Part shown: in pieces, positions 1,296 to 17,522 of the stretch | Layout of the letters: the number at the start of each line of letters is the position of its first letter | How positions within the stretch are numbered: the stretch's first letter is position 1 | DNA from: an uncultured virus (IMG/VR IMGVR_UViG_3300019776_000649) | Lineage: Duplodnaviria; Heunggongvirae; Uroviricota; Caudoviricetes | IMG/VR virus record: IMGVR_UViG_3300019776_000649 | DNA length: 20,000 nt | Direction: 5' to 3' (one strand) | Program-made: the position numbers and the translations under genes | The notes under the pieces: model-generated | Seen by the model: only the letters and a program-made list of their open reading frames with translations | Told to the model about the DNA's origin: nothing | Databases searched by the model: none

Positions 1296-1346
1296 ATTTG
1301 ATTTAGTCGCTCGGTTGCCCAAGGCACACCAGCGATTAAACCAAAT
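1296..1346. repeat. 51-bp palindromic element, copy 1
   Basis: ATTTGATTTAGTCG + 23 nt (ctcggttGCCCAAGGCacaccag) + CGATTAAACCAAAT. Confidence 0.9.
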
Positions 1347-1459
1347 GGTGCCTCGCAGTCACACAATCCGAAGGCACCTCGCAATTCCAGCGAACATGAG
1401 TTGTGTGAAATCCAATCTCAGGGACCGCTATCCCTGATCCCCACAGGAGCAATTGAACT

Positions 1460-3196
1460 ATGTCTAAAGAGACGCAAGAAACGGAAGAGATTATCGAGAC
1501 AGCCCCCAAGAAAAAGCGCACGGCAAAGCCGGTGCCTGTCTCAACGACTGTGACCAACGATCCCCGCGTTGTCGAGCTGGTTGCCGGTGGCATGACTGAG
1601 GAGGAGGCAATCTCCTTGATTGAGGCCGAGGACGCGGCAAACGCCATTAGCCCCTCTCCTTCCCCGGTGAACACGGACGAGATCAAGCAGGAGCTTGGAG
1701 ACCTCCTTGATATGGCCGTGCAGTTCGCAAAGGAGACCGAGGAGCATATCGCCGAGCTAACAAAGGATGGCCCCATTCAGATCACTCTGAATGATCCGCC
1801 CAAGAAGGAGAAGGGTAAGCGCACCGTCAAGCCAACTGAACAGGATACCGAAGAGCAGAACGACGCTCGCAATGCGGCCTTCGGCGGCGATCCCAACTAC
1901 GTGGTGCCGAGCTTCGGCAAGGCAGACCAAGAGCGTGGTTTCACCAATGCCCTCGGTCTTGAGTCCACTGAGACCCACCGTCACGTTGCTAAGGTCTGGC
2001 AAGAGCAGTGCTTCACGCTTCCCGAGATTCGTGACAGCATCGGTCGTGCTTCGGAGAGCAAGAAGGACGAGCACATCCTTCTTTCTTCTCTCCGTATGAA
2101 GCAGGATGATAAGGGATACGTTGCGCTTTCCAACGACTCCCCGTTCACGGGCTTTGGGCTCAACTCTGCATGGCGACATGCGGGTTTGCCTGACGGTGTT
2201 CTGAAGTTCCTTGCTCACCCCGACCACGGTGGGAAGTACAACGGACATATCGTCACTCTGTACAACGACGCGATCAAGGGCGTCGAGAAAGGCGATCAGA
2301 AGGACGCGCTGGTTCGCTTCCGCAATATCCCTAACGTTGATGGCGGCAGCACACTGGCTGTCCGTGCTATTCGCTCCCGTGGATTCACAATCATCGACAA
2401 CGACGCTGTGATGGCGCTAGTGATGAACGCGATCCCGAAAGAGGCTCACAAGCACACCTTGGCCAGCCATGTTGTTCACGACGGCGACAACATCGTCATG
2501 AATATCCTTCCACCGGACTATGTAAAACGGCGCGAGGATTCGGAGTACGGTGTCGGTATCGCCGTGAAGAACTCTGAGGTTGGCGAGTCTCCACTGACCG
2601 TTGAGCCTTTCCTCTTCAGAGCGATCTGCTACAACGGTATGATCTGGGGTCGCCGCGATGCTACCGAGGCCAACGTCACCCAGCGCCACTCCGGGATGGT
2701 CAACTGGACCGAGCTTCAGGAGAAGATCAACCGGGCGGTGCTTGCCGCTCTCACCGAAGGGCAATCTCTGCTGACGCAAATGGACCTTGCCAAGCAGGTT
2801 CAGGTTCATGATCCAGAGAAGCTGGTGGTCTACTTGTCTGAGACAAATGGGCTCAACCGCACTGTCGGTCGTGCTTGGTGGAACGGCTACCAGGAGACGC
2901 TTCAGAATGAGGGTACCAAGGCCGAGGTTGAGGGCAACTTCTTCGGTCTGGTGCAAGGGCTGACTCTGGCAGCACAGGGCTTCACCGGATTTACCCGCAA
3001 TGGCATCGAGCGTACTGCCGGTCAGATTCTGGCTGAGGAGCTGACGGATGGTATTGAGCGTATGCGGGATCGTGTGGCCCGTGCTGAGCAGTTTGCTGAT
3101 CGTAGAACTGGCGCTCAGGTTGACCACTATCTGTACGGTCGTGTCGAGATCGGCCAGGACGCACCCGTCCTGACGATGGAAGCAATAACCGGATAG
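1460..3196 (+). CDS. DUF932/DUF945-like phage/plasmid protein with a long acidic N-terminal extension
   Basis: Motifs RAIRSRGFTIIDNDAV and GIAVKNSEVGESPLTVEPFLFRAICYNGMI match the DUF932 pattern (NSxxG…RxxCxNG). RBS AGGAG. Confidence 0.75.
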   Translation: MSKETQETEEIIETAPKKKRTAKPVPVSTTVTNDPRVVELVAGGMTEEEAISLIEAEDAANAISPSPSPVNTDEIKQELGDLLDMAVQFAKETEEHIAELTKDGPIQITLNDPPKKEKGKRTVKPTEQDTEEQNDARNAAFGGDPNYVVPSFGKADQERGFTNALGLESTETHRHVAKVWQEQCFTLPEIRDSIGRASESKKDEHILLSSLRMKQDDKGYVALSNDSPFTGFGLNSAWRHAGLPDGVLKFLAHPDHGGKYNGHIVTLYNDAIKGVEKGDQKDALVRFRNIPNVDGGSTLAVRAIRSRGFTIIDNDAVMALVMNAIPKEAHKHTLASHVVHDGDNIVMNILPPDYVKRREDSEYGVGIAVKNSEVGESPLTVEPFLFRAICYNGMIWGRRDATEANVTQRHSGMVNWTELQEKINRAVLAALTEGQSLLTQMDLAKQVQVHDPEKLVVYLSETNGLNRTVGRAWWNGYQETLQNEGTKAEVEGNFFGLVQGLTLAAQGFTGFTRNGIERTAGQILAEELTDGIERMRDRVARAEQFADRRTGAQVDHYLYGRVEIGQDAPVLTMEAITG

Positions 3197-3209
3197 GACC
3201 ACGGATAAG

Positions 3210-3270
3210 AGAGGAGCCAGCACAAGGCGAAGCTACCAAGCTACGCAAGGAGCTGGCTCCTCTTTCTTTC
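3210..3270 (+). terminator. terminator-like hairpin with a large loop that encloses an AGCT-ACCA-AGCT element
   Basis: 12-bp inverted repeat AGAGGAGCCAGC (3210-3221) / GCTGGCTCCTCT (3252-3263), followed by TTCTTTC. Confidence 0.5.
3227..3246. repeat. ACCA-loop mini-palindrome (GCGAAGCT-ACCA-AGCTACGC)
   Basis: 19/20 identical to the reverse complement of 5060-5079. Confidence 0.8.
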
Positions 3271-3322
3271 GCGGAGCTACCACGAAGGTTGGTACCTTCG
3301 CTCAATCTCCGGCGAGGTTAAC

Positions 3323-3532
3323 ATGCTCAAATGCACTTCCGATAAGCACTCTTTTGGTGTCGCTCCGAGCGGTTTTGAAGTTGATCTAAAGACGGTTGGC
3401 CGATCAAAAAAGACCAAGTGGAAAGAGATTGAGACCGGCAAGGTCTACTGCAAAAATTGCTACGCCACCAAGGAAGAAATCCTATCATCTCTGAATCCTG
3501 AGCCAGATGAAAATGATGAAGACGAGGAGTAA
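3323..3532 (+). CDS. small putative Zn-binding protein with an acidic tail
   Basis: C-x4-H and CKNC motifs. RBS GAGGT. Confidence 0.65.
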   Translation: MLKCTSDKHSFGVAPSGFEVDLKTVGRSKKTKWKEIETGKVYCKNCYATKEEILSSLNPEPDENDEDEE

Positions 3533-3586
3533 AGGAAGCCTTCGCAGTGGGCTTTCATTCCCACAGCCGAAGGCTTCAAAGACAAT

Positions 3587-3856
3587 ATGGAAAACACAAC
3601 AACACTCACTCTTCAGGAGGTTGACCAACTACTGCGAGAAGGCGTCCCAGTCAAGGAGATCGCACATAAGGTTGGGGAATCTCCCACTCGATTCTACAAG
3701 TGGCTGGAGGAGCAGCACGGAGCCAGGGTCAATACTCTGCGATTCGTGGTGAAGATCGAAGATGGCTCCACAATAGGCGTCAATCCTGACGACATTGATA
3801 AGGCCGCTCGCCTAGTCCCATACCATCCCAGACGACGAACAGCCGACCAGGGTTAG
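3587..3856 (+). CDS. helix-turn-helix DNA-binding protein
   Basis: LLREGVPVKEIAHKVGESPTRFYKWL is a typical HTH pattern. Confidence 0.75.
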   Translation: MENTTTLTLQEVDQLLREGVPVKEIAHKVGESPTRFYKWLEEQHGARVNTLRFVVKIEDGSTIGVNPDDIDKAARLVPYHPRRRTADQG

Positions 3857-3876
3857 CATAACCCCCTGGAGGGAAC

Positions 3877-4992
3877 ATGGAAAATCCCACAGGGGCCACC
3901 GACCTCTCATCACTGCACGATGGGTATAAGTGCTTACTGTATTTCGATACGCTGAGCCAGCCCTATCGTAGACTCCGCGATGCAGATACTCTCCGATTCT
4001 GCTTAAGATGCGTCCTTCCAAAATGGCGCGATCCAGAGCGTGAAAAGCGAGACTATCATGTCGAATACTTCCCGATAGACAGCAATGGCGTTTACGAGAT
4101 GGCTCGCTACGTCAAAGCCTACCGGGACGACTACGACATCTTCAACTCCATTCTCCCTGTGTCCTTTCCTTTGTCAAAGAGGGGCATCTACCCCTCAAAT
4201 GACGACTTCAGGTACTACGGCCTTCTTGCGACTGAGATCGACGGTGAAGGCTTCCAGGGCACTCCTGATGGCAAAACTGGAGTTCAAGCAGCCATTGAAC
4301 ATTTCATGGTGGCTCACAGGGAAAAAGGGGTTCCGAAGCCACACATGGCAGTACAGTCTCGCAGGGGTTATCACCTCTATATGATGCTGGATAAGCCATA
4401 CCAGATGGCATCTCAGGAGCAGGGTGCGATCTACACAAGAACCCTCCGTCGCCTCTGTCTTTGGATCAGCGGAGAGCCTGACGGAGTATGGATGGGAGAG
4501 CCTGCCTTTAGTGGCCCTCATGCTGACTCAGGACCGACCTACAGAGCCGCCACTCTAAGGCCAGTTGGCTCCTACAACCACAAGGTCAAAGACAATCCCG
4601 TGATGATGAAGCTGATTCACCACAACCTGTCTTTGGAGCGTCACAGCCGGATTAAGTGGACGACAGAGATGCTTCCGCCCTTGGTTGATCCTCCTCCTAT
4701 GCCAATTCATGTAGCTCAGGATGGTGGAGTCCCAGAGCGTAAACCCTACCAACGGTGGCGCATGAGAAAAGAGACAGAAGAGTTTCTCATCAATGGTCAT
4801 GTTGGCCCAGGGTTCCACGAACGGATCAAGAGAGCCACCTCAGATATGCAGTGGGCTGGCTACACCCAGCAAGAGACACTGGAAAGACTTGAGCAAGTCT
4901 GCAAAACAGAGACTCAGCTCAAGGAGATCCGGTCTTTTGTCCTCAAAGGCGCAAGAGCCTATTGGAATTGGAACACTACAGAGCAGGACTAA
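3877..4992 (+). CDS. AEP-superfamily (RepB-like) DNA primase
   Basis: Motif I LATEID, motif II SRRGYHLY, motif III HAD, followed by LRPVGSYNHK and a helical C-terminal domain. Lies near a helicase. RBS GGAGG. Confidence 0.75.
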   Translation: MENPTGATDLSSLHDGYKCLLYFDTLSQPYRRLRDADTLRFCLRCVLPKWRDPEREKRDYHVEYFPIDSNGVYEMARYVKAYRDDYDIFNSILPVSFPLSKRGIYPSNDDFRYYGLLATEIDGEGFQGTPDGKTGVQAAIEHFMVAHREKGVPKPHMAVQSRRGYHLYMMLDKPYQMASQEQGAIYTRTLRRLCLWISGEPDGVWMGEPAFSGPHADSGPTYRAATLRPVGSYNHKVKDNPVMMKLIHHNLSLERHSRIKWTTEMLPPLVDPPPMPIHVAQDGGVPERKPYQRWRMRKETEEFLINGHVGPGFHERIKRATSDMQWAGYTQQETLERLEQVCKTETQLKEIRSFVLKGARAYWNWNTTEQD

Positions 4993-5059
4993 CCGCCAAT
5001 GCCTCCCGCTCTTCCCAGTGCAGCAGTCCGGGTACTGGGTAACTACAGGACACTTCATC

Positions 5060-5079
5060 GCGTAGCTTGGTAGCTACGC
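5060..5079. repeat. ACCA/TGGT-loop mini-palindrome (GCGTAGCT-TGGT-AGCTACGC)
   Basis: Perfect 8-bp inverted repeat directly upstream of the RBS of the gene at 5094. Confidence 0.8.
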
Positions 5080-5093
5080 ACAAGGAGCAACCT

Positions 5094-5810
5094 ATGCCAG
5101 CAATTGGAGGGGCTTCCGCCCCACGAACACAAGCCCCGGCGCAAAATCGTGAAACCGTAATTGAGCGTGTTTCCATCGCCCGCTATCACTACCCTGTCTA
5201 CAATACCCAGGACCCTGCCAAGCAGTGGAACCCTACCAGCAACACTTTGTGCCTGGTTGATGCCGAGGTCTACTTCAAGGGTGAACGTGATCCCCTTATC
5301 CTTCGTGATCTGTCCGTGACTCTAACCAAGGATAACCAGTTCGCTGTCTGGCCACCGGATAAGTGGGACCCTCGCGCCATTAACGAGAAGACGGGGCAAC
5401 CGGGCGCTCGGGTTCGGGTTGTCGAGCTTCCCTACGGCGTCACACTTGCCATTCGTGGCGCAATGACCACGGGGGATGACGCTTTCGACGAGATGACTCA
5501 GCAACAGCTCGCTCAGGCTTGGGTGGACGAGATGTCCGCAGAGGGCAAGGTAGCTGAGATCAATCACTACTACGGTCTCATTGGTGTCGAGTCCGAACCG
5601 GAGCCCGAGCCCGTCGCTCCACCGCCCCCTCCGGTACGGCAAGCTCCTCAGGCGGCACGTCCTGCGGCAGTAGCGCCACAGGCATCACATCAGGCAACTC
5701 GTCCAGCAACTCCCTCTCGCCCAGTAGCTCCGGGTCGGAATGCCGCTCCTAAACTGCCTCCTGCCGAGGGTGGCGAGTACGGTGAGCAACCTAATCCCTT
5801 CGAGGAGTAG
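5094..5810 (+). CDS. putative single-stranded DNA-binding protein (SpoVG/PC4-like fold, Pro/Ala linker, acidic-aromatic tip)
   Basis: LILRDLSVTLTKDNQFAVWPP resembles the SpoVG core. The C-terminus GEQPNPFEE is SSB-tail-like. Lies between the primase and helicase. AAGGAG precedes ATG 5094. Confidence 0.55.
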   Translation: MPAIGGASAPRTQAPAQNRETVIERVSIARYHYPVYNTQDPAKQWNPTSNTLCLVDAEVYFKGERDPLILRDLSVTLTKDNQFAVWPPDKWDPRAINEKTGQPGARVRVVELPYGVTLAIRGAMTTGDDAFDEMTQQQLAQAWVDEMSAEGKVAEINHYYGLIGVESEPEPEPVAPPPPPVRQAPQAARPAAVAPQASHQATRPATPSRPVAPGRNAAPKLPPAEGGEYGEQPNPFEE

Positions 5811-5828
5811 ACAACCCTTTGGAAGCTG

Positions 5829-5867
5829 GCCCGGAAGATAGCAATGTCTTCCGGGCTCAATTCTTTT
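5829..5867 (+). terminator. GNRA-capped hairpin, probable terminator
   Basis: GCCCGGAAGATA-GCAA-TGTCTTCCGGGC followed by tcaattctttt. Confidence 0.6.
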
Positions 5868-5878
5868 ATGGAGAACTT

Positions 5879-7414
5879 ATGAATAAGCCTATCATCGGGG
5901 GTCGAATACCCCTTGGACGCGAAGCAACCATGCTTCGTGAAGGGCTCCCCACAGGGGAGATTCCACGTCAAGACGATTTCGCCCCGAAGAGGGGTACTTC
6001 TAAAATCGAATACGAAGAACCCGGAACGGGTGGCATTGACGAGTTCGATGTCTCAGCCTTTATCATGGAGGCTCCTCCATCTGCCCTAGATCGCATTATC
6101 GAACAGCTTCTGGTTCGTCGCCGTGGCAACGTAATGGATGTTGTCGGTCTAGTCGAAACAGCCGCCTACCGCCTTGGCATGGATCGGTCTTCTGGTGCCT
6201 TCAACCGATTCACCGAGGGCCTTCGTGCCGCAAACACCCTGGATAGAGACATCGACCTTCCTATGATCTGGTTTGGCCTCTACGAGCAAGCCTTGCACTT
6301 GTTCAATGGGCAGAGTGGTGCTGGTAAGTCCTCCGTCATGTACAACATCGCCATGCACCTGGCCATTGGCAAAGAGCTGTGGGGCATTCCTGTCAGCGCC
6401 CCTCAAAATATCGTTTACCTTGATCCCGAAAACCGCGTTGTTCGGCCACACAAGCTGTCCCGAATCGCGGAGAAGATGGGAATCGAGGTTCCAGACAATC
6501 TTCACTTCCATGACGGCGAAGGGATTGACCTTTCCGATCCCCGCACCCTGAAAGAGCTTGGCGACCTGCTCATGGACAAAGGCGCTACAGGGCTAATCAT
6601 CGACCCGTGGGTGAACCTCTTTGGGACGCTCAACGAAAACGACAACGCGGAGGCCGCTCGCCAGGGCAAGGCTCTGCTCGACCTTATCAAGAGGACTGGT
6701 TGCTGGGTAGTAGCTGTCCACCACACAGGCAAGTCGTCTGAGGGCGGCGGTCGAGGCGCTTCTGCTAGAGAAGGAGTCTCCCGCGTCATCATGGACTTGG
6801 TTCTTCCGAGTATGGCCCGTGAAGAGGACGACGACTACAATCCTGAGCGTAAGCAACTGCGCGAAGACTTCGTTCGCCTGATGGTTCGCAAAGACGGTAT
6901 CGGGGGGATGAAGTCCAGCGTGTATCTACAGATGCTCGGAGAGAAGGCGCAGGACTGTTTTCGCCGTGTCAGCTTCCGCGAATGGATGAATAACCTACGG
7001 GAGGCCGCAGTCTCTAAGGGGATGTCCAAAGAGGAGCAGGCTGGCGTGATGATCCTAGAGTTCCTGTCGGATAAGTACCGGGTTGTCCCCCGCAAAGAGA
7101 TCATCGACTACTTCAAATCGCTTGGGCCTAAAGCTCCCGGAGTCACAGCAGTCAATGATGCTCTTGTTACTCTTACCAGTGGAGAAACCCCGTCCTTGAA
7201 GGAACAGTACATTGGAGGCAAGGGAGGTGCAAAAGGCTATTATCTTGGAACCCTAGACCCAGCTACCTTTGTTAACGAAGTGACCGGAACCTCTGCTGCC
7301 GATGATGTAAATGAGATGGTAGAGCTTTCAGCAGGGAAAAAGCAAGTAGACGAGGAATACGTTTTACCGACAGACGGTGTGATTACTCCACCGCCAGGGG
7401 CTTTTGAAGAGTAA
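5879..7414 (+). CDS. RecA-fold helicase (AAA_25 / RSF1010 RepA-like)
   Basis: Walker A GQSGAGKS, VYLDPEN, Walker B LIIDP, VVAVHHTGK and GRGASA. GGAG precedes ATG 5879. Confidence 0.85.
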   Translation: MNKPIIGGRIPLGREATMLREGLPTGEIPRQDDFAPKRGTSKIEYEEPGTGGIDEFDVSAFIMEAPPSALDRIIEQLLVRRRGNVMDVVGLVETAAYRLGMDRSSGAFNRFTEGLRAANTLDRDIDLPMIWFGLYEQALHLFNGQSGAGKSSVMYNIAMHLAIGKELWGIPVSAPQNIVYLDPENRVVRPHKLSRIAEKMGIEVPDNLHFHDGEGIDLSDPRTLKELGDLLMDKGATGLIIDPWVNLFGTLNENDNAEAARQGKALLDLIKRTGCWVVAVHHTGKSSEGGGRGASAREGVSRVIMDLVLPSMAREEDDDYNPERKQLREDFVRLMVRKDGIGGMKSSVYLQMLGEKAQDCFRRVSFREWMNNLREAAVSKGMSKEEQAGVMILEFLSDKYRVVPRKEIIDYFKSLGPKAPGVTAVNDALVTLTSGETPSLKEQYIGGKGGAKGYYLGTLDPATFVNEVTGTSAADDVNEMVELSAGKKQVDEEYVLPTDGVITPPPGAFEE

Positions 7415-7423
7415 AGGTAGCAG

Positions 7424-7450
7424 GGAGGGGCTACCTTCGCCCCTCCATTT
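7424..7450 (+). terminator. GC-rich hairpin abutting palindrome copy 2
   Basis: GGAGGGGC-TACCTTC-GCCCCTCC followed by ATTTCGTTT. An alternative pairing AAGGTAGC/GCTACCTT (7414-7437) is also possible. Confidence 0.5.
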
Positions 7451-7497
7451 CGTTTAGTTTTATTTCGACCTAAGGGTAGAGTTCGATTAAATGAAAC
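7447..7497. repeat. 51-bp palindromic element, copy 2 (divergent)
   Basis: ATTTCGTTTAGTTT + 23 nt (tatttcgACCTAAGGGtagagtt) + CGATTAAATGAAAC. Arm position 5 shows a compensatory G:C to C:G change. Confidence 0.8.
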
Positions 7498-7556
7498 GGA
7501 TAAAAGCCTGGTAAAGGGTTAGTCATGATGTAAAATCACTCACACTGGAGTTAAAT

Positions 7557-8039
7557 ATGCCGATCTTAAGTATTTTCGGATCATCCGACTGGCCACAAGA
7601 AGGAAAATATGGCGATAGATTCGTCGAAGAAACTCTTTCCAAGCAGGTAGGAAGTGGAACGACGGTTTTCATCAGCGATAAAAACTCTCACATAGATAGA
7701 CATATCTATGAATGGTGTATGAAAAATGGAGTCATGATTGCTGTATTTCAGACAAACGAAAAATGTTTTGGCAAGACAGCACGAGGACGAACAGATGATT
7801 CCATCATAGCCAACTCATATCGCTTCCTAGCTTTTTGGGACGGAAAATCTGAAGACGTAAGACAGGCTATCGAAATTGCTTGCAAACGGCTAATACCCGG
7901 TTGTGTCTATTCAACATCGGGCAAAGAGTACCTGTTAGACCCCCAGCAGATAGGTACAAAGACCGAGGACTTCATCAGGTCAATACTGGAGGAATCGAGT
8001 GGAGACAACGGACACGAAAAAAGACGGTCTGTACTATGA
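7557..8039 (+). CDS. SLOG-superfamily (DUF2493/YspA-like) protein with degenerate motifs
   Basis: SIFGSSDW … FGKTA … FLAFWDGKS follow the DUF2493 layout. RBS GGAG. The region is visibly more AT-rich than its flanks. Confidence 0.65.
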   Translation: MPILSIFGSSDWPQEGKYGDRFVEETLSKQVGSGTTVFISDKNSHIDRHIYEWCMKNGVMIAVFQTNEKCFGKTARGRTDDSIIANSYRFLAFWDGKSEDVRQAIEIACKRLIPGCVYSTSGKEYLLDPQQIGTKTEDFIRSILEESSGDNGHEKRRSVL

Positions 8040-9006: not shown

Positions 9007-9011
9007 AAGGC

Positions 9012-10499: not shown

Positions 10500-10526
10500 A
10501 GCCTCAAAACTCCAAAGCGGAGGCGC

Positions 10527-10546
10527 GGAGCTACCAAGCTCCAGCC
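10527..10546. repeat. ACCA-loop mini-palindrome GGAGCT-ACCA-AGCTCC-AGCC
   Basis: An identical 20-mer occurs at 11235-11254. Confidence 0.85.
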
Positions 10547-10560
10547 GGATAGCAAGACCA

Positions 10561-11166
10561 ATGATTGCCATCTCGGGTTACTCCCGCCAGGGTAAGGACG
10601 AGGCAGGCAAAGCACTGATAGCCAGAGGCTACAAGCGAGTCGCTTTCGGCGACATCATTCGGCAAAAACTTCGTGAGTTCACCCTTCCAGATGCCGTGAA
10701 GCTGATCGCCTGGATGCGAAATCAAGGACAACCAGAGTCCGAGAGGAAGCGAGTATGGCAGTCGTTTGAAGACATGGCCACCTTCAAGATCGACCTCTTC
10801 ACAGAAAATGACGATCAGAAGAAAATGCTCCGCGCACTGATGGAGTGGTACGGCATGTACGACTACGACGCCATCATGGATGAGCTATTTCGCACGCTGC
10901 CACTCCCCGCTGTGAACACAAGGCTCATGAGAGTCCGTGAAGCCCAGGCTTGGGTTGATAGCGGAGGATTTGTGATCGAGGTCATTAGGCTAAACGCTGT
11001 CCCACTTACCGACTTTGAGCGCGATACCCAGCAGGAGTTGCGCGACTCGGGACTGCTATCAGTGACGATCATCAACGGCGGCACTATCGAGGACCTACAC
11101 CGGGCGATTTTGGATTTTGCCGAGAGTTCTCCCACCGGATACCAACCGGAGCTGGCCATGTTCTAG
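10561..11166 (+). CDS. deoxynucleoside monophosphate kinase
   Basis: MIAISGYSRQGKDE P-loop, AFGDIIR, and IINGGTIEDL. Start set at 10561 because family members usually begin just before the P-loop; 10468 is an alternative. Confidence 0.8.
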   Translation: MIAISGYSRQGKDEAGKALIARGYKRVAFGDIIRQKLREFTLPDAVKLIAWMRNQGQPESERKRVWQSFEDMATFKIDLFTENDDQKKMLRALMEWYGMYDYDAIMDELFRTLPLPAVNTRLMRVREAQAWVDSGGFVIEVIRLNAVPLTDFERDTQQELRDSGLLSVTIINGGTIEDLHRAILDFAESSPTGYQPELAMF

Positions 11167-11168
11167 CC

Positions 11169-11219
11169 ATTTGATTTAGTCGGATACGAGCAAAAGGCAA
11201 CCAAGCGATTAAATCAAAT
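11169..11219. repeat. 51-bp palindromic element, copy 3
   Basis: ATTTGATTTAGTCG + 23 nt (gatacgaGCAAAAGGCaaccaag) + CGATTAAATCAAAT, flanked by CC/GG. Confidence 0.9.
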
Positions 11220-11234
11220 GGTTGCCTTTCTGGT

Positions 11235-11254
11235 GGAGCTACCAAGCTCCAGCC
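11235..11254. repeat. ACCA-loop mini-palindrome GGAGCT-ACCA-AGCTCC-AGCC
   Basis: Identical to 10527-10546. Lies between palindrome copy 3 and the RBS of the gene at 11271. Confidence 0.85.
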
Positions 11255-11270
11255 TGCATGAAAGGACCCT

Positions 11271-12605
11271 ATGAATACGATACTTCGCATCTACACGGAC
11301 GGCGGTCTCGCACAAGACAACCCCTCGGTTCTTGGTGGCGCTTACTGCGTCATCGCGGTCAAGGAAACGATAGACGAGAACGGCTTAGTGATCGGCTCCC
11401 AGCAGATCAGTATCCAGAGCGACATCCTCCTCCCCGATGAACTAGATGCCAGCAAGAAGGAGCCAGCCAAGGGTAGTGTCTCCAACAACAACACGGAGCT
11501 TCTCGGTGTGATCGTGGCTTTGGAGACCGTTCCCAAGCTGGTGGAGTGGGTGGCAGGTGAACTCATGGAGACCCTAACCATCGTCACGGACTCGGAGTTG
11601 GCAATGAAGTGGGCTCAGGGACTCTACGGAACGGACTCGGTTCCAAACGTCCTTCTTGAGCGTCTGAAGGACGCCTATGTTCACATCGGCAGTCTGGGCT
11701 TCGACACTCAGTTCTTCCCAAAATACGAGCTGATCGCCGGTCATCCAAACCAACAAGAGCTGAAAAAGCAGTTCAAGATGAAGAAGACCAGGAAGTACCG
11801 CGTCTCGGAGGTCAATGTCCGTTGCGACGAGGTTTGCGGAAAGATTTGTGATGCTGTATCTGCGGTCTATGTCAGCGGCCAGGACGTGACCAGGGAGACA
11901 GTCAAACAGTACATGGATGAGCAAGATACAAAGGAGGCTGAGGTAGAGAACCAGAGCCGCCCACCGATGCCAGAAATCACCGGATATGGCCTCAAGGCAG
12001 GAAACACCTACTTGTGGCTGAACGACAGTTGGGCTGAGGTCTTTAGCGGTGTCCCGCCTACGGCATCCGAGTTCCAAGCCTTCGTTGGGCTCATGCAACG
12101 ATCCGAGTTGGGAGAGATCGGACTTCGAGCTTCTTATGCTCTTGGTCTTTCGGGTGAGTCTGCCGAAGTTCTTGAAGCTCTCATCAAGAACAATTGGGAT
12201 GGTTCGCCAGACGAGATCGGAGACGTGCTGCACTACGTCTTCGGGTCGGCTCTTCTAGTCGGCATTGACGGCGATTACCTAATGGCAAGCGTCGTGGCTC
12301 GGATCATGGCTATCCAGAAAGGTGAGATACCTCCGATGCCACATACCCTTGCTGACATGGCCTACACGCTTCCCTACTTGTCTGCCAAGTACGGCGAGCT
12401 AATCAAGAAGAAGGACTACCACAGCAAGGAAATCGAGCAGGACAAGCTGGTTGGCGCACTGCACAATGTCCTGTTCAACCTCTGCGGCATCTGCAACGCC
12501 TCAAACATGACCATCCAGGCGGCGATGACTCGCAACATGGCGAAACTCCGCGAGCGCCACCCGAGCGGGTCCTTCACCCCGACGTATCACGACGCGGCAG
12601 TTTAG
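11271..12605 (+). CDS. RNase HI domain fused to a tandem MazG-like (all-alpha NTP pyrophosphatase) region
   Basis: RNase HI motifs IYTDGG, NNNTE, IVTDS, AGH and NxxCD. MazG motifs LGLSGESAEV…DEIGDVLHY and NMAKLRERHP. Confidence 0.8.
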   Translation: MNTILRIYTDGGLAQDNPSVLGGAYCVIAVKETIDENGLVIGSQQISIQSDILLPDELDASKKEPAKGSVSNNNTELLGVIVALETVPKLVEWVAGELMETLTIVTDSELAMKWAQGLYGTDSVPNVLLERLKDAYVHIGSLGFDTQFFPKYELIAGHPNQQELKKQFKMKKTRKYRVSEVNVRCDEVCGKICDAVSAVYVSGQDVTRETVKQYMDEQDTKEAEVENQSRPPMPEITGYGLKAGNTYLWLNDSWAEVFSGVPPTASEFQAFVGLMQRSELGEIGLRASYALGLSGESAEVLEALIKNNWDGSPDEIGDVLHYVFGSALLVGIDGDYLMASVVARIMAIQKGEIPPMPHTLADMAYTLPYLSAKYGELIKKKDYHSKEIEQDKLVGALHNVLFNLCGICNASNMTIQAAMTRNMAKLRERHPSGSFTPTYHDAAV

Positions 12606-12622
12606 AGCGATAGGAGATCATT

Positions 12623-13141
12623 TTGAACGATACATCCACTTACAATAGCCCCGAGATCGACAAGATCGCGGTGGCGCTGGTGAAAGTCCAGAGCGAAGTT
12701 GGAGGGGTCTCCAAATCGGGAAAGAACCCTCACCTCAGAAATTCCTATGCGACTATCGGTGACGTGCTCGACACGGTGATTCCTGTAGCGCAAGCACATG
12801 GGCTGGTCATCATCCAGCGCCCCATGCCGTCTGGAAACCCAAACCTGATCTTGCTCCAGACACTCGTTGTCCATGAGAGCGGCCAGTTTCTCTCAAGCCT
12901 GATCGAGATGCCTCTTGGCAAGCAAGACCCGCAAGGGTACGGCTCTGGAATGACTTACGCTCGCCGCTACGGTCTCATGTCTTTCTTTGGCCTCAAAGCG
13001 GAAGATGATGACGGAAATGCGGCCAGTGGAGTGACCGGACCACCGGCTCAGGCATCAAAACCACCCACTCAGGCAACAAGGCCAGCGGCGATCCCGACTG
13101 GTGGTGTTAGGCCACAAACGCGGCAGCTACCAACTCGGTAA
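12623..13141 (+). CDS. erf: ERF-family single-strand annealing protein
   Basis: Signature GSGMTYARRYGL…EDDDG. TTG start with RBS AGGAGA. Confidence 0.9.
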   Translation: MNDTSTYNSPEIDKIAVALVKVQSEVGGVSKSGKNPHLRNSYATIGDVLDTVIPVAQAHGLVIIQRPMPSGNPNLILLQTLVVHESGQFLSSLIEMPLGKQDPQGYGSGMTYARRYGLMSFFGLKAEDDDGNAASGVTGPPAQASKPPTQATRPAAIPTGGVRPQTRQLPTR

Positions 13142-13160
13142 AACGACAATCGCATAGACG

Positions 13161-13191
13161 AAGGCTCCCAGAAATGGGGGCCTTTTTGTTT
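13161..13191 (+). terminator. intrinsic terminator
   Basis: AAGGCTCCCA-GAAA-TGGGGGCCTT followed by TTTGTTT. Confidence 0.8.
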
Positions 13192-13202
13192 GGAAAGAGA
13201 CT

Positions 13203-14177
13203 ATGAAAATCAAACAAAAGCGGGGCAGGCCGATCCCCTCTGCTTACAGCGTGGAAATCTTGGAGCATACCATCGCCCCATCTGGCTCCGAGGCGATCAC
13301 CTACTTGCTGACTTATCCGCTGATCGTCCACGCCGAGCTAATGACACACCGTCAGTTCAGCCGTAACGCCGCATCCAACCGGGCCATTCCCATTGAGCGC
13401 ACGATGGAGTCTGTTATTCGCTCTCCGTTCGTCCCAGATCGCCTACCGAAGTCAGGTAAGGGGATGCAACCCGGAGGCTACTATGAAGGCTTCCAGAACA
13501 CCCTGCGGCTGTTCATTTACCGCGAGTCGCGCTGGTTTGCTCTTGCCGTTTCGTGGCTCCTGCTTCGTCTTGGCGTTCACAAGGAGATAGCCAATCGGGT
13601 ACTGGTTCCCTGGCTTTGGATCACGGTCGTTGTGACCACGATGAACGATGAGAAGGGGCTACAGAACTTCTTTAGGCAGCGTTGTCATTCTGACGCCCAG
13701 CGCCAGATTCGCATCCTGGCCGACATGATGAGAGCCAAGTACATCCAATCCACACCAAGGCGTCTGGAGCAAGTTGAGTGGCACCTGCCCTTCATCGCAA
13801 AAGAAGACTACCGACAGGTCTACCAGGAAGCAGTTCATGAGTGGGAGAGGCAGACAGGAGAGGACGAGATGGCCTTCCCGCTTGGCTTCCAGGACTGGGA
13901 GCTGGTCGGCAAGCTGGTCAAAATCTCTGCCGCTCGGTGCGCTAGAACCTCGTTTGTCCCCTTCGACAGCATGGGCTCCAAGAGTCATGCAGAAGACCTG
14001 AAGCTACACGATCAGCTTGTCGCCAAGTACCATATGTCCCCACTGGAGCATCAGCTCTGCGGAGTCACCTCTGACTGGAAAAGCAACAACGTTCACGGAT
14101 ACCGCCAATACCGTGAGCTAGTCGAGAATGGATACGTCGCCGAGGTGTCCGTCTATCAAAGCGCAGTCATGAACTAA
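13203..14177 (+). CDS. thyX: flavin-dependent thymidylate synthase (phage type)
   Basis: ELMTHRQFSRNAASNRAIP (phage variant of the RHRxxSxxxxSxR motif), HKEIANR, SAARCARTS and HMSPLEH. Confidence 0.88.
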   Translation: MKIKQKRGRPIPSAYSVEILEHTIAPSGSEAITYLLTYPLIVHAELMTHRQFSRNAASNRAIPIERTMESVIRSPFVPDRLPKSGKGMQPGGYYEGFQNTLRLFIYRESRWFALAVSWLLLRLGVHKEIANRVLVPWLWITVVVTTMNDEKGLQNFFRQRCHSDAQRQIRILADMMRAKYIQSTPRRLEQVEWHLPFIAKEDYRQVYQEAVHEWERQTGEDEMAFPLGFQDWELVGKLVKISAARCARTSFVPFDSMGSKSHAEDLKLHDQLVAKYHMSPLEHQLCGVTSDWKSNNVHGYRQYRELVENGYVAEVSVYQSAVMN

Positions 14178-14185
14178 GGAGAAAT

Positions 14186-16366
14186 ATGAGAGCAACTTTT
14201 TCACTAACCAAGTCGTTTGTCGATGGATACCGCCAGAAGCCGAGCCCATTTGGACTCAACGGCTTTGGAGAGCTGGTTTACCGCCGCACCTACAGCCGCA
14301 TCAAGCAAGACGGCACCAACGAGGACTGGACAGATACTGTCGCCCGTGTTGTGACCGGCGTCTACCGGATGCAGGAGCGCCACATCAAGGGGCTTCATAA
14401 GCGTTGGGACAGTGCCAAGGCACAGCGATCCGCGCAGACCATGTTCGACCTGATGTGGAACATGAAGTTCCTCCCGCCGGGTCGTGGACTTTGGGCGATG
14501 GGTAGCGAGATCACAGAGGACCGAGAGATGTTCGCGGCCCTCAACAACTGTGCCTTTGTCAGTACCGACGATCTTGCAGTCGCACTTGAGAAACCGTTTG
14601 CCTTCCTCATGGACATGTCCATGCTTGGGGTTGGGGTCGGTTTCGATGCCAAGGGCAAAGGCTCTATCAGTATCCTGAATCCAGACAAGACCTTCAACGT
14701 TTCGTCTTCTGTGGGGAAGATGCCGATGATCGACTTCATCCTGGAAAAGTTCGATCTGATTCGTGAGCATATCTACCCTGGCTCTCTGAGCTATGTCTCA
14801 GTACCTGACTCCAGCAAACACTACCGGGAGTGCTACACAGTCGATTACGATGACGACCCTGCGTATGGTGGATTCTACTACCAGATTCCTGATACCCGCG
14901 AGGGGTGGGTTTTGGCCCTGACTTTCATGCTCTCTTCCTACTTCCGCGACCTGCCGCGAGTCAAGTTCCTCTACGATCACATCCGTCCTGCTGGTCTTCC
15001 CATAAAGGGCTTTGGTGGCGTCTCGTCTGGTCCTGAGCCACTGAAGATGATGCTTGAGTCTGTCAGCGGCTATCTGGATCAGCGCATCGGGAAGAAGATC
15101 ACGGTCGAGGACATTGTGACCATCCAGAACATGATCGGCGTCTGCGTCGTGGCTGGCAATGTCCGTCGCACCGCTGAGATTGCTTTCGGTGAGGCAGACG
15201 ATGAGCAGTTCATGGACCTCAAGAACTACCGTTGGAACCCTGCCACCATGCAGATGGCGGGGCCAGCGGCCCATCGAGCGGCGTTTGGGTGGACCAGTAA
15301 CAACTCGATCTTCGCCGAGATCGGGATGGACTACACCAAGGCGGCGGGACGCACTGCGGTTAATGGTGAACCTGGGTACGCTTGGCTGGAGAACATGCAG
15401 AACTACAGCCGCATGATCGACGCTCCCGATTTCAAAGACTACCGAGTCAAGGGAGGCAACCCGTGTCTTGAGCAGTCGCTCGAAAGCTACGAGCTGTGCA
15501 ACCTGGTGGAGACTTACCCGGCTCGCCACGAAACGATGGAGGAGTGGCACAAGACTCTCAAGTACGCCTACCTCTACGCCAAGACGGTTACTCTCGGAAT
15601 GACCCACTGGGAAGACACGAACGAGGTCATGAGCCGCAATCGGCGCATCGGCACCTCGATCTCCGGTTTTGCTCAGGCCCGTGTCAAGTTCGGTATCCAC
15701 AAGCTCAGGACTGGCCTTGACGAGGGCTTTAAGACGATCCAGAAGTACGACCGAATCTACTCCGAATGGCTGTCAGTACCCCGGAGCATCAAGACGACCT
15801 CTGTGAAGCCTTCGGGCACTGTCAGCTTGCTTGCTGGCGCAACGCCTGGGATGCACTTCCCCCACTCGCGGTTCTGCATCCGTCGTATGAGGTTGTCTAT
15901 CCACTCCAATCTCATTCAGCCATTGAAAGACGCTGGCTACGACATTGAACCCTGCGTCGGCCAGGAGGACAGCACAGTAGTCGTGTCTGTCCCTATCGAC
16001 ATGGGCGAAGGTCTCCGTGGTACGGAGCAAGTCTCGATGTGGGAGCAGTTTGAAATCGCGGCATTCCTACAGGCTTACTGGACAGACAACCAAGTCTCTT
16101 GCACAGTCACGTTCGATCCCGTGTCTGAAGGGCCTCAGATCAAGTATGCCTTGGAGCTTTACGAGTCCCGGCTCAAGGGTATCTCGCTACTCCCGAGGCT
16201 TGACGCTGGTGCCTACCCTCAGATGCCTTATGAGGAGATCAGCGAGGCCGAGTATCACGCGAGGGTCGCTGAGCTAGGCAAGCCAGACTTCAGCGGGTCA
16301 GTTGAGCAAGCCGAGATGAATGACAAGTTCTGCGACAGCGAGAAGTGTGAACTTCCAGCCAAGTAG
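14186..16366 (+). CDS. nrdJ: class II (adenosylcobalamin-dependent) monomeric ribonucleoside-triphosphate reductase
   Basis: YRRTYSR, PPGRGLW, LNNC, VVAGNVRR, NPCLEQ…ELCNL, VKPSGT and C-terminal CDSEKC. Confidence 0.93.
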   Translation: MRATFSLTKSFVDGYRQKPSPFGLNGFGELVYRRTYSRIKQDGTNEDWTDTVARVVTGVYRMQERHIKGLHKRWDSAKAQRSAQTMFDLMWNMKFLPPGRGLWAMGSEITEDREMFAALNNCAFVSTDDLAVALEKPFAFLMDMSMLGVGVGFDAKGKGSISILNPDKTFNVSSSVGKMPMIDFILEKFDLIREHIYPGSLSYVSVPDSSKHYRECYTVDYDDDPAYGGFYYQIPDTREGWVLALTFMLSSYFRDLPRVKFLYDHIRPAGLPIKGFGGVSSGPEPLKMMLESVSGYLDQRIGKKITVEDIVTIQNMIGVCVVAGNVRRTAEIAFGEADDEQFMDLKNYRWNPATMQMAGPAAHRAAFGWTSNNSIFAEIGMDYTKAAGRTAVNGEPGYAWLENMQNYSRMIDAPDFKDYRVKGGNPCLEQSLESYELCNLVETYPARHETMEEWHKTLKYAYLYAKTVTLGMTHWEDTNEVMSRNRRIGTSISGFAQARVKFGIHKLRTGLDEGFKTIQKYDRIYSEWLSVPRSIKTTSVKPSGTVSLLAGATPGMHFPHSRFCIRRMRLSIHSNLIQPLKDAGYDIEPCVGQEDSTVVVSVPIDMGEGLRGTEQVSMWEQFEIAAFLQAYWTDNQVSCTVTFDPVSEGPQIKYALELYESRLKGISLLPRLDAGAYPQMPYEEISEAEYHARVAELGKPDFSGSVEQAEMNDKFCDSEKCELPAK

Positions 16367-16382
16367 AGAAACGACAACATAG

Positions 16383-16419
16383 ACGAAAGAGCCCCCCGAT
16401 TGGGGGGCTCTTTCGTTTT
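16383..16419 (+). terminator. intrinsic terminator
   Basis: 15-bp stem ACGAAAGAGCCCCCC-GATT-GGGGGGCTCTTTCGT followed by TTT. Confidence 0.85.
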
Positions 16420-16450
16420 GCGAAGGATCGGTCCTTCGTGGGAGATCACT

Positions 16451-16990
16451 ATGCCAGCTCATAGAAAATACCCAGAAGTCAAGCGGATTGAAGGCAGTGT
16501 CATCGTCTTTGAGGCAAAGAAAGACACGGGGGATATGGTCGAGGTTAAGGTAGATAGAGGCGACTGGGAAAGGGTTCGTCAGTACAACTGGAGGGTCAGC
16601 AGAAAGGGATATGTCCACGGTCAAGACTACATGAATGGACAAAGCCGAAAAGTTCTCCTGCACCGCTACTTGATGAATTTTCCTAACTCCCAGATTGACC
16701 ATGCCGATAGAGACAGAGCCAACTGTACGAAGGCAAATCTGCGAGTCTGCACAAGCTCACAGAACAACGGCAACAGGTCTTACGCTGGTTCTTCTAAATC
16801 GGGATTCATGGGCGTCCATTTTAGAAAAGACACGGGCAAGTACAGGGTCAAGATCGTTCATCAAGGCAAAAAGCACTTCGTTGGAAACTTCGATGATCCT
16901 TATGAAGCCGCCCTTGCCTATGACCGGAAGAAGGAAGAGCTTTTTGGGGAGTTTGCCTACGTCAATTTTCCAGAGAGGCGTATGGCATGA
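16451..16990 (+). CDS. HNH homing endonuclease with a C-terminal AP2 domain
   Basis: LHRYLM…IDHADRDRANCTKANLR and AP2 motif GVHFRKDTGKY…EAALAYD…NF. GGAG precedes ATG 16451. Confidence 0.9.
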   Translation: MPAHRKYPEVKRIEGSVIVFEAKKDTGDMVEVKVDRGDWERVRQYNWRVSRKGYVHGQDYMNGQSRKVLLHRYLMNFPNSQIDHADRDRANCTKANLRVCTSSQNNGNRSYAGSSKSGFMGVHFRKDTGKYRVKIVHQGKKHFVGNFDDPYEAALAYDRKKEELFGEFAYVNFPERRMA

Positions 16991-17448
16991 AGCAGATCAC
17001 CGCAGACGGCAGGAGTCCTCGAAAAGAGGGGCGAGTCTTCGTGGAACCCTACGGAATGGTCAAGGCCGATAACGAAGGCTCTGAGCTAGAGATCGAGTTA
17101 CTGACGGTACTCCACCAGGAGCTACCCGGCATCACCTACGGGATGCTACGCGAGTTTCGATTCAATCCTCCGGCTATCCACAAGTTTGACTTTGCTTGGC
17201 CGGACATCAAGATCGCTATCGAGATCGAGGGTGGACTTTACTCTGGTGGAAGACATACCAGAGGCGCTGGTTACGAGGCCGATCTTATCAAATACAACGA
17301 GGCAGTCCTTCGTGGCTGGATCGTTCTGAGATTCGGCACTAACCATGTTCGCCGGGAGAGGGAGTCGTCGCTGATGATGATTCGGCGAGCCTTCAATATC
17401 AGAAAATCCGGTGATCGAATTGGCGATTTAATTGATTTAGTCGTTTGA
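16987..17448 (+). CDS. PD-(D/E)xK nuclease (DUF559/Vsr-like)
   Basis: EFRF…FDFAWPDIKIAIEIEGG…RH…DLIKYN…GWIVLRF. Confidence 0.85.
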   Translation: MKQITADGRSPRKEGRVFVEPYGMVKADNEGSELEIELLTVLHQELPGITYGMLREFRFNPPAIHKFDFAWPDIKIAIEIEGGLYSGGRHTRGAGYEADLIKYNEAVLRGWIVLRFGTNHVRRERESSLMMIRRAFNIRKSGDRIGDLIDLVV

Positions 17449-17480
17449 TCGCCTAAGGCAACGCACCGATTAAATCAAAT
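17430..17480. repeat. 51-bp palindromic element, copy 4
   Basis: AATTGATTTAGTCG + 23 nt (tttgatcGCCTAAGGCaacgcac) + CGATTAAATCAAAT. Overlaps the last codons of the nuclease gene. Confidence 0.9.
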
Positions 17481-17522
17481 GGAGCTACTAGACCGTCATC
17501 TAGTAGCTCCATTCACTTTCTT
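17478..17522 (+). terminator. 15-bp hairpin containing GGAGCTAC, terminator-like
   Basis: AATGGAGCTACTAGA-CCGTCA-TCTAGTAGCTCCATT followed by cactttctt. Confidence 0.55.

Follow-up and report, generated by a model that had tools for sequence, protein, structure and literature searches.

Initiator-binding origins can stand at more than one place in a phage genome, as do oriL and oriR of bacteriophage SPP1 and ori and crr of P4, one of the two sites being within the initiator gene or adjacent to it; these systems have two copies each, built as iteron arrays. The long transcript of bacteriophage T7 carries a family of similar, co-oriented intergenic RNase III hairpins with an internal loop. In RSF1010, RepB′ primes on the hairpin-forming sites ssiA and ssiB (excerpts of PMC8567376), and the ssiA hairpin includes a CCGAAGG mini-hairpin (passage quoted from PMC13037366). 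The origin of the archaeal plasmid pRN1 is a stem-loop just 3′ of the primase-helicase gene, and a similar stem-loop stands 3′ of the replication gene in Bordetella phage BIP-1 (PMC4234260). In SaPI Rep and SCCmec Cch2, according to excerpts of PMC7581432, the helicase gene is immediately followed by the origin, to which the C-terminal domain of the helicase binds. Here we analyse a 20,000-nucleotide stretch of an uncultured phage genome (hereafter the window), for which a preliminary description had noted a dispersed family of palindromes and listed several functions that might suit it.

Results

The four 51-bp palindromes of the window are genuine and belong to a conserved family. The pattern TTTAGT-N13-AAGG-N8-CGATTAAA matched at four places with no mismatch (0.00 expected from 200 shuffles), and the search returned the four co-oriented plus-strand copies originally described. 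Copy 1 (1296..1346; core CCCAAGG, one T>C change in the right arm) lies 21 nt past the stop codon at 1274, and copy 2 (7447..7497; core CCTAAGG) lies 32 nt past the helicase stop at 7414. Copy 3 (11169..11219; core CAAAAGG), an exact match to the arm consensus, lies 2 nt past the stop at 11166, and copy 4 (17430..17480; core CCTAAGG) has an offset of −19 nt, sharing the last 19 nt of a DUF559-like ORF (16987-17448). The claim that every copy is at or just after a stop codon was thus borne out. Consecutive copies start 6151, 3722 and 6261 nt apart. By our own gene list, the window has 11 intergenic gaps that measure 40 nt or more, and the copies occupy four of these. All window genes and all four copies are on the plus strand. 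Under a covariance model of the four copies, copies 1 to 4 score 68.8, 64.9, 72.7 and 73.9 bits on that strand, as against 29.3-46.5 bits on the minus strand; with filters off, the model found no fifth copy in the window, the next match scoring 9.8 bits.

Alignment confirmed that the spacer is 23 nt long in all four copies, with AAGG invariant in it. The spacers have diverged in sequence at this constant length; the arms, which are built from short tandem repeats (ATTTG/ATTTAG), are near-invariant. The dyad centre is the first A of AAGG, the GG after the right arm is invariant, and the flanks of the four copies prolong the palindrome (CC...GG). Copy 2 is the most degenerate, matching the consensus at 10 of 14 left-arm and 12 of 14 right-arm positions, and a search with the strict consensus, allowing up to three mismatches, recovers copies 1, 3 and 4 only. 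A G+C-rich hairpin (7424-7446) lies directly upstream of copy 2. Directly after copy 4 there is a terminator-like hairpin (17478-17513), and two free-standing endonuclease genes, HNH-AP2 (16400-16990) and the DUF559-like gene, adjoin that copy.

The preliminary description had allowed for an already described element, and none emerged. Rfam 15 gave three matches in the window at E values up to 1, none at an element; blastn found no match to the element in plasmids, and published phages likewise held none. It had not recognised the copies as REP, attC, dif or CRISPR repeats, and the features compared here did not fit any of these. REP elements occur as many short copies with an associated RAYT transposase; no RAYT (IS200/IS605-type) transposase gene was found in the window. 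Integron attC sites go with a nearby integron integrase and stand singly at the 3′ end of each one-gene cassette; no integrase or recombinase was found in the window, and neighbouring copies are separated by several genes and 3.7-6.3 kb, a spacing that also differs from the regular tens of bases of CRISPR repeats. The dif site is a 28-bp XerCD site and the element is 51 bp long. Against a MITE, the flanks of the four copies have no common direct repeat.

Covariation and a conserved G-U pair had been offered as signs of an RNA or single-stranded DNA hairpin. The G.T (G-U) asymmetry at arm position 11 is indeed seen in all four copies, and the G:C to C:G swap in copy 2 is real. It is, however, the single such double change among the copies: 90.8% of cells are paired in the four-copy alignment, as against 88.1% in shuffles, and 55 of 500 shuffles were as high, so that covariation within the window rests on one pair. 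The G-U argument proved weak as well, with 14 G.T cells against 7 A.C cells and four of the 14 coming from one fixed position. Across lineages, in the alignment that includes the relatives described below, 79.3% of cells are paired, as against 55.1±2.8 in shuffles (none of 500 as high), and both sides have changed in 24 of 29 pairs while AAGG is invariant. Dyad symmetry with a fixed centre thus co-varies across lineages. As plus-strand RNA, the copies fold at −16.1 to −27.4 kcal/mol (z −2.9 to −6.7), better than the minus strand for copies 2 and 3. Two uncompensated changes in copy 2, at positions 6 and 13, yield G-U pairs; this copy makes an acceptable plus-strand RNA hairpin (−18.9 kcal/mol, z −3.5) but folds poorly as DNA (−5.4 kcal/mol, z −0.9).

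Upstream of copy 2 are genes for two candidate partners of the elements. On the evidence of homologues and a structural model, the gene at 3877..4992 (plus strand) is predicted to encode an archaeo-eukaryotic-type, prim-pol-like primase (AEP), a candidate for the priming enzyme at the elements. It has no Pfam match; its model, with a mean pLDDT of only 58.8, resembles the AEP domain of S-2L PrimPol (6zp9_A, E 4e-6) and RSF1010 RepB′ (3h20, E 1.7e-4). The gene at 5879..7414 (plus strand) encodes a RepA-like helicase (Pfam AAA_25, E 2.6e-22) whose profile matches RSF1010 RepA (1g8y, E 0.004). Its C-terminal model has the topology H-b-H-H-b-b, and the weak, sub-threshold fold and profile matches of this part are nearly all to winged-helix domains. 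The helicase thus looks, on the model, as if it ends in a winged-helix-like domain, which makes it a candidate for the protein that recognises the arms.

Six distant relatives, related through the RepA-like AAA_25 helicase (L104, L162, L023, L024, L103 and L130), have one long palindrome each, within or just past the 3′ end of the helicase gene. Their arms are wholly different in sequence, and the core on the dyad axis is constant, either CCTAAGG or CCTATAGG. A scan of related phages with the covariance model, as had been proposed, gave a match (27.3 bits, E 0.01) where the helicase gene of L104 ends. The arms of this palindrome are 16 nt long, and CCTAAGG takes up positions 9-15 of its 23-nt spacer, the geometry and register of the window copies. 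In L162 the arms are 15 nt and the spacer 19 nt long, and L023 has its core on the opposite strand; in these two, as in L104 and the window, the dyad centre is the first A of AAGG. The other three (L024, L103 and L130) have CCTATAGG on the dyad axis. Homologues of the primase gene stand upstream of the helicase gene in L023, L103, L104 and L024.

The palindrome lies just after the helicase stop in L103, L130 and window copy 2, and just before it, inside the ORF, in L104, L162, L023 and L024. The in-ORF palindromes, with up to 24-26 perfectly paired positions, encode a linker ahead of an acidic tail, and their cores fall in different reading frames, which argues that selection acts on the nucleotides and not on the protein. 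The asymmetric core of L023 is turned to the strand opposite the helicase mRNA, and the G.T pairs are there too, 3 versus 0. Since the single palindrome of the relatives stands at the helicase 3′ end, copy 2 is, judged by position, its counterpart, and copies 1, 3 and 4 are additional ones, dispersed elsewhere. Copy 2 alone has the helicase-end position with an AEP primase gene upstream; the others are elsewhere. The multi-copy state was found only in the window's phage: in the two relatives with whole records that were searched, L024 (50,268 bp) and L023 (22,899 bp), the arms occur once each.

This association of core, arms and helicase gene is specific. The two cores occur 86 times in 1,557,833 nt from 161 sources, six times with flanking inverted arms, and each of the five armed cores that are not from the window is within −122 to +60 nt of the helicase stop codon. 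Eight control cores occur 725 times; one of these occurrences has arms, and it is remote from any helicase gene. The helicase loci have few strong palindromes (17 in 734,695 nt), yet five of 85 loci have one at −250 to +150 nt from the helicase stop, three of the four closest relatives among them.

Discussion

Of the functions that the preliminary description had listed, a primase or origin signal is singled out by the comparison with relatives, because a palindrome with the same core ends the helicase gene of a primase-helicase module in six of them. The reading that we favour, at about even odds, is that the elements are origin- or ssi-type DNA replication-initiation sites, in several dispersed copies, for the phage's own primase-helicase pair, a function suggested by position and analogy. 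The helicase would use its winged-helix-like C-terminal domain to bind both inverted arms, assemble there and melt the A+T-rich sequence; the freed strand would fold into a hairpin capped by a CCNAAGG mini-hairpin, and the RepB′-like primase would begin a primer beside it, like RepB′ at ssiA of RSF1010. In a phage of roughly 150 kb, extra co-oriented copies every 4-6 kb could serve as added initiation or re-priming sites on one strand. Several findings count against such initiation sites. The relatives manage with one copy, so that the multi-copy state needs a separate explanation, and the positional counterpart, copy 2, is the most degenerate copy and the poor DNA hairpin. The copies are co-oriented with transcription and lie between genes, where an RNA element would look alike, and the invariant G.T at position 11 and the GG after the right arm suit a plus-strand hairpin, RNA included. 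The cumulative GC-skew minimum of the window, at 6548, is near the helicase end and is not significant (permutation p 0.13).

RSF1010 is one of the close parallels. The helicase of the window is of the RepA/AAA_25 type, the primase model resembles RepB′, and both systems have an inverted-repeat hairpin signal, with the apex CCGAAGG in ssiA and CC(T/C)AAGG here (excerpts of PMC13037366 and PMC8567376). CCGAAGG and CCTAAGG agree in six of seven letters of what is a short motif, ssiA being represented by the motif quoted from PMC13037366. RSF1010 differs in having a RepC-like iteron initiator, which the window lacks, its helicase apparently having a DNA-binding domain of its own; in having two separate 40-nt signals on opposite strands, whereas the element is an undivided 51-bp palindrome whose one apex is asymmetric; and in having one origin as against at least four dispersed copies. 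The placement seen in pRN1, a stem-loop directly 3′ of a replication-protein gene, is that of copy 2. However, ORF904 of pRN1 is one fused protein with an SF3 helicase, whereas the window encodes a separate AEP primase and RecA-type AAA_25 helicase; the stem-loop of pRN1 measures about 100 nt and occurs once, and a CCNAAGG core is not among the features given in the origin description of PMC4234260. SaPI and SCCmec, as far as the excerpted account of them goes, share an initiator-helicase gene followed by an origin of short repeats recognised by the C-terminal domain, possibly of two hexamers; their single-copy origins, however, are arrays of direct iterons that surround A+T-rich DNA and lack the palindromic form and conserved centre of the element, and their helicases are of other families. 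Unlike the iteron arrays of SPP1 and P4, the window has 51-bp palindromes in a family spaced every 4-6 kb.

It is unlikely that the elements act instead as RNA hairpins in a long plus-strand polycistronic transcript, be it as RNase III-like processing sites, 3′-end stabilisers or sites for a phage RNA-binding protein. They resemble the T7 RNase III sites as a co-oriented family of hairpins with an internal loop between genes, each copy is at or just past a stop codon, and the stable plus-strand folds, the G-U pairs at position 11 and in copy 2, and the strand preference of the covariance model in every copy all fit such a role. The relatives weaken it. Their homologous elements are single-copy and stand beside the helicase gene, unlike a general intergenic processing signal, and in four of them the palindrome is inside the helicase ORF, where cleavage would destroy the mRNA; in L023, moreover, the core and G.T pairs lie opposite that mRNA, facing the non-coding strand, which is hard to reconcile with a function in RNA. 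Within the window, the absence of an Rfam family at the elements, the small surplus of wobble pairs over A.C mismatches and the inconsistent order of terminator-like hairpins (copy 2 follows one, copy 4 precedes one) also tell against it.

Near-invariant arms around a diverged spacer of constant length would suit a protein contacting the arms and the centre, so the copies, lying between genes in one orientation, might also be double-stranded sites: a phage-specific promoter, or a dispersed operator or ‘stoperator’-like family between gene blocks. The binder could be the helicase itself or one of the small HTH-type proteins that the window encodes (3587-3856, 18763-19257). We regard this as very unlikely, because the nine sigma-70-like sites that were found in the window all lie away from the elements, and the single copy of the relatives goes with the helicase gene and is often within its ORF, an unexpected place for either; the core that relatives with unrelated arms have in common points to a conserved enzyme and not to a lineage-specific repressor. 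There is similarly only a slim chance that an origin palindrome has spread as a selfish, MITE- or REP-like repeat, or marks a hotspot of recombination or module exchange, its extra copies having no part in replication. Conserved arms around a diverged interior recall terminal inverted repeats, the element is multi-copy only in this phage, and copy 4 adjoins two endonuclease genes. But the four copies lack target-site duplications, searches of the window turned up no gene for a transposase, integrase, recombinase or HUH protein, and the fixed spacer and invariant AAGG amid divergence imply that every copy is under selection. Four DNA runs contained no variant letters and no joint with at least 30 letters on both sides. 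The cassette-exchange or recombinase site initially listed gained no support.

For replication-initiation sites a stricter form can be imagined, in which the RepB′-like primase starts only at these hairpins, giving a hard-wired priming map every 4-6 kb on the same strand. We consider this form quite unlikely; if it were true, lagging- or displaced-strand synthesis would begin at fixed, sequence-defined places, and the ‘leading-strand-only’ ssi logic of small IncQ plasmids would extend to a virus of roughly 150 kb. More generally, the origin of replication is known for hardly any uncultured phage, and a long palindrome that is centred on a CCTAAGG-type core and ends the helicase gene is a short, recognisable signature of the probable origin in a whole clade with separate AEP primase and RepA-like helicase. 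The element also offers a concrete substrate for biochemistry of the two enzymes. The phage studied here is unusual in having multiplied the element. Should its copies be active, many sequence-defined initiation or priming sites would be in use in one large phage, which would bear on how sequence-specific primases of the RepB′/prim-pol type can support replication of large genomes; should they be inactive, they would illustrate the spread of an origin as a repeat.

Results

We found the 51-bp palindrome at 1296–1346, 7447–7497, 11169–11219 and 17430–17480 of the window (copies 1–4), all in + orientation, as the preliminary description had claimed. Its account of their geometry also held: the spacer between the two arms is 23 nt in 4/4 copies, AAGG is present in 4/4, and one asymmetry, a G·T at arm position 11, is kept in 4/4. 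A pattern composed of the invariant letters, TTTAGT-N13-AAGG-N8-CGATTAAA, matched all four copies with no mismatches, against 0.00 matches expected (200 shuffles), and a strict consensus with ≤3 mismatches recovered copies 1, 3 and 4; copy 2 is clearly degenerate, more so than the other three. Copy 2 does carry the compensatory swap ascribed to it, one G:C to C:G double change, but covariation stands for this pair only, since among the four copies it was not above the shuffle control. Each copy lies at or just after a stop codon, as had been noted (21, 32, 2 and −19 nt from the preceding stop for copies 1–4, the end of copy 4 nearest that stop being overlapped by 19 nt of the DUF559-like ORF), and 4 of the 11 intergenic gaps of ≥40 nt in the window hold an element. 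A covariance model was built from the four copies; its unfiltered scan of the window found no fifth one, and a search for lone half-sites found none. The window arm can be read as short tandem repeats, ATTTG/ATTTAG. The − strand arm of copy 1 (1296–1309) contains TTTGGTTTA, which resembles, possibly by coincidence, the sequence that PMC8718748 gives as recognized by the prim-pol of phage NrS-1 (5′-TTTGGTTA-3′).

The window is a block of replication and nucleotide-metabolism genes from an uncultured phage, with every plausible gene on the + strand. The genes encode, in order, a DUF932 protein, a small HTH protein, a 371-aa protein (3877–4992), a 237-aa protein (for which an ESM Atlas look-up was uninformative) and an AAA_25 (RepA-like) helicase (5879–7414), followed by a dNMP-kinase-like protein, a MazG fusion, ERF, ThyX and a class II ribonucleotide reductase; two HNH-AP2 endonucleases and one DUF559-like endonuclease, a DnaE C-terminus-like fragment and a tRNA-Arg are also encoded. 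The MazG fusion (444 aa; 11271–12605) joins a MazG pyrophosphohydrolase domain to a weak RNase H-like match at the N-terminus. The HNH-AP2 and DUF559/Vsr-like genes (16400–17448 and 19270–19767) look like free-standing homing endonucleases. The similarity of a 189-aa ORF (18184–18753) to DNA polymerase III alpha is confined to the C-terminal OB-fold part (profile ~940–1057 of 1146); this ORF may be a fragment standing alone or one part of a polymerase gene that is split. The tRNA-Arg gene occupies 19888–19960; different tRNA-like sequences are present on loose contig ends at 19902–19960, suggesting that the 3′ edge of the window falls at a repeat or a cluster of tRNA genes. The longest contig in the helicase cluster record is 149,753 bp.

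A second intergenic repeat family consists of a small hairpin, GGAGCT-ACCA-AGCTCC, at 3229–3248, 5064–5083 (inverted), 10527–10546 and 11235–11254, with variants at 3273–3282, 7424–7446 and 17481–17510. These hairpins lie mostly 14–17 nt 5′ of start codons and directly adjoin element copies 2, 3 and 4. Two strong terminator-like hairpins, at 13140–13190 after ERF and at 16367–16416 after the ribonucleotide reductase gene, have in common a conserved leader, AACGACAA...CATAGACGAA.

The four-copy covariance model was then applied to 160 loci encoding relatives of the helicase, 80 from IMG/VR and 80 from metagenomes. The IMG/VR loci gave no match and the metagenome loci two, one of them at the very 3′ end of the helicase gene of L104, whose product is 34% identical to the window helicase. 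The L104 palindrome, inside the ORF, has 16-nt arms unrelated in sequence to those of the window, a 23-nt spacer and CCTAAGG at spacer positions 9–15, exactly the geometry of the window copies. Inspection of the corresponding site in the other close relatives showed palindromes inside the helicase ORF at L162 (arms 15 nt, spacer 19 nt, core CCTAAGG), at L023 (arms 24 nt, spacer 13 nt, core CTAAGG on the other strand) and at L024 (arms 26 nt, spacer 0 nt, core CCTATAGG). At L103 the palindrome (arms 12 nt, spacer 16 nt, core CCTATAGG) begins 25 nt past the stop, and at L130 a CCTATAGG core lies 60 nt past the stop, with arms of score 9. In L104, L162, L023 and the window copies alike, the dyad is centred on the first A of AAGG. 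The elements thus belong to one family, and in the relatives they lie at the helicase gene end.

A covariance-model match at L170 was set aside as outside this family: it is an A+T-rich dyad that lies, past the end of the helicase gene, in a hub of another kind that is rich in iterons. This hub, 290 nt of non-coding DNA (L170 4012–4302) preceded by the helicase gene and a zinc-ribbon ORF, contains large inverted repeats, GGCGAAGTT iterons and a duplicated A+T-rich dyad with an arm like that of the window; it looks origin-like, though of a different family.

Two scans quantified this pattern. Strong palindromes are rare in helicase loci (17 in 734,695 nt), yet in 5/85 loci, including three of the four closest relatives, one is located between −250 and +150 nt relative to the helicase stop; the window elements and that of L103 are uncounted here because the scan demanded four perfect inner pairs. 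Of the two cores there are 86 instances in 1,557,833 nt, six of them with flanking inverted arms, and all five armed cores outside the window are at −122 to +60 nt from a helicase stop. Eight control cores, in comparison, gave 725 occurrences, of which one was armed, far from a helicase gene. We also aligned the four window copies, L104, L162 and the reverse-complemented L023 without gaps, taking the dyad centre as the anchor. In this alignment 79.3% of cells are paired, compared with 55.1±2.8 in shuffles (0/500 as high), an excess of symmetry that leans on the analyst's choice of anchor, as the conserved centre does not. Both sides change in 24 of 29 pairs, AAGG is invariant, and sliding the partners by 1–3 columns reduced pairing to ≤46.8%.

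At L104, L162, L023 and L024 the palindrome within the helicase ORF falls in the linker from a helix-rich domain to an acidic tail. The core is read in differing frames, for example CCT AAG G in L104 and C CTA AGG in L162, so the constraint acts on the nucleic acid and not on the protein. The arms are single-copy in the whole records of L024 (50,268 bp) and L023 (22,899 bp), and are built of short tandem repeats, TCCCAGTT in L023, CAGATCCG/CAGAATCG in L024 and a TCCGCAC unit in L130. The acidic tail after the palindrome-encoded linker is conserved as PYK/R-E/D-DDD (L023 3855–3871, L024 7411–7427, L104 5453–5469); the window helicase has none.

A homologue of the 371-aa protein is encoded upstream of the helicase in L023, L103, L104 and L024. 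Confidence in the predicted model of this protein is modest (mean pLDDT 58.8), and the model's best fold matches are all archaeo-eukaryotic primases: cyanophage S-2L PrimPol (E 4e-6), RepB′ of RSF1010 (E 1.7e-4), then cellular primases. RepA of RSF1010 is, in turn, a weak match of the helicase profile. In the modelled helicase C-terminus, helices and strands follow one another as in a winged helix (helix-strand-helix-helix-strand-strand), and profile and fold searches with this region gave sub-threshold matches only, nearly all to winged-helix domains. The cumulative GC-skew minimum, at 6548 near the helicase end, was not significant (p 0.13).

Comparison with Rfam, proposed in the preliminary description, gave no match at the elements (E up to 1). 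An exact 20-base element motif was absent from IMG/VR and a 28-base motif from metagenome_contigs and genome_contigs; the 22 IMG/VR matches of a 16-base motif were discarded as chance, their flanks being unlike the element. Neither the whole window against phages (Megablast) nor one element copy against phages and plasmids (blastn) found a match, and no cultured phage is close to the window phage. The helicase has relatives at 86% (P0002) and 53% (P0003); single-protein queries with the helicase, the ribonucleotide reductase and P0003 turned up nothing close in either IMG/VR or the genome collection, and the primase alignment search recovered the L023 and L024 contigs again and nothing further. 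The window is present in four DNA runs of one study, one of them possibly its source, and no RNA run is listed as containing it. The four runs show no variant letters on the window and are clonal, so that no population covariation can be read from them. In the possible source run, contig joints 3301>17432, 10546>11198 and 11251>17432, whose sides are only 24 letters at 85% likeness, give a weak hint of more copies elsewhere in the same assembly, collinear and beside GGAGCTACC hairpins.

Discussion

A unique palindrome at the end of an initiator-helicase gene, beside a primase gene, as seen in the relatives, resembles several published origins. In plasmid pRN1 a stem-loop origin 3′ of orf904 is described as needed for replication and functional after relocation, and phage BIP-1 has a similar stem-loop 3′ of its replication gene (passages of PMC4234260). 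The origins of SaPI and SCCmec elements are placed directly downstream of the helicase gene and bound by the helicase C-terminal domain (in PMC7581432). RSF1010 is the closest enzymatic parallel: its oriV is unwound by RepA, and RepB′ primes on the hairpin-forming single-strand initiation signals ssiA and ssiB (as outlined in PMC8567376). The ssiA hairpin includes a CCGAAGG mini-hairpin (according to PMC13037366), and the element apex is CC(T/C)AAGG. From this match we read copy 2, just after the helicase stop, as the positional counterpart of the origin element of the relatives, and take the family to be initiation sites of the origin or ssi type, an assignment to which we give about an even chance. 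We infer binding, melting and priming at the elements: the helicase would attach to the A+T-rich arms and melt them, and the primase would begin synthesis next to the capped hairpin.

The window taken alone agrees with an RNA processing or stabilizing hairpin. The fixed G·T, the GG that invariably follows the right arm, and covariance-model scores higher for the + than the − strand all suit a + strand hairpin, and copy 2 is a poor hairpin as DNA (−5.4 kcal/mol, z −0.9) and a fair one as + strand RNA (−18.9 kcal/mol); DNA hairpin energies are similar for both strands. Wobbles and A·C mismatches do not decide between the strands: they number 14 and 7 in the window copies, 4 of the 14 coming from the fixed position. 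The corresponding counts are 2 and 2 in L104, 2 and 4 in L162, and 3 and 0 in L023, there on the strand opposite the mRNA. We consider the RNA hairpin unlikely, however, because the palindromes of the relatives have up to 24–26 perfect pairs inside an ORF, are single-copy and invariably sit at the helicase gene, and the one in L023 has its core on the opposite strand. That the elements are a family of operators or promoters seems quite improbable: a sigma-70 promoter scan found no site at any of them, and the relatives lend this no support. We are just as doubtful of a selfish or recombination element, given four copies without target duplications, a window in which a recombinase was not found, and a length and core that look selected in every copy.

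If the elements are initiation sites, their kind is already known, namely a stem-loop or ssi origin beside primase-helicase genes. The CCTAAGG-type conserved core that defines the family across distant phages appears to be undescribed, and so does its amplification, in a large phage, to a dispersed set of co-oriented copies; among the titles and opening lines of abstracts that literature searches brought up, none described a dispersed family of origin-like palindromes in phages or phage ssi signals. In the relatives one copy suffices, whereas the window has four in 20 kb in one orientation, and this multi-copy state is the unusual and least supported part of the case. The uniform orientation would be explained by a strand-specific role, and equally well by the copies being transcribed. 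As initiation sites, the copies could serve for re-priming on the displaced or lagging strand, by a primase that needs a complex signal.
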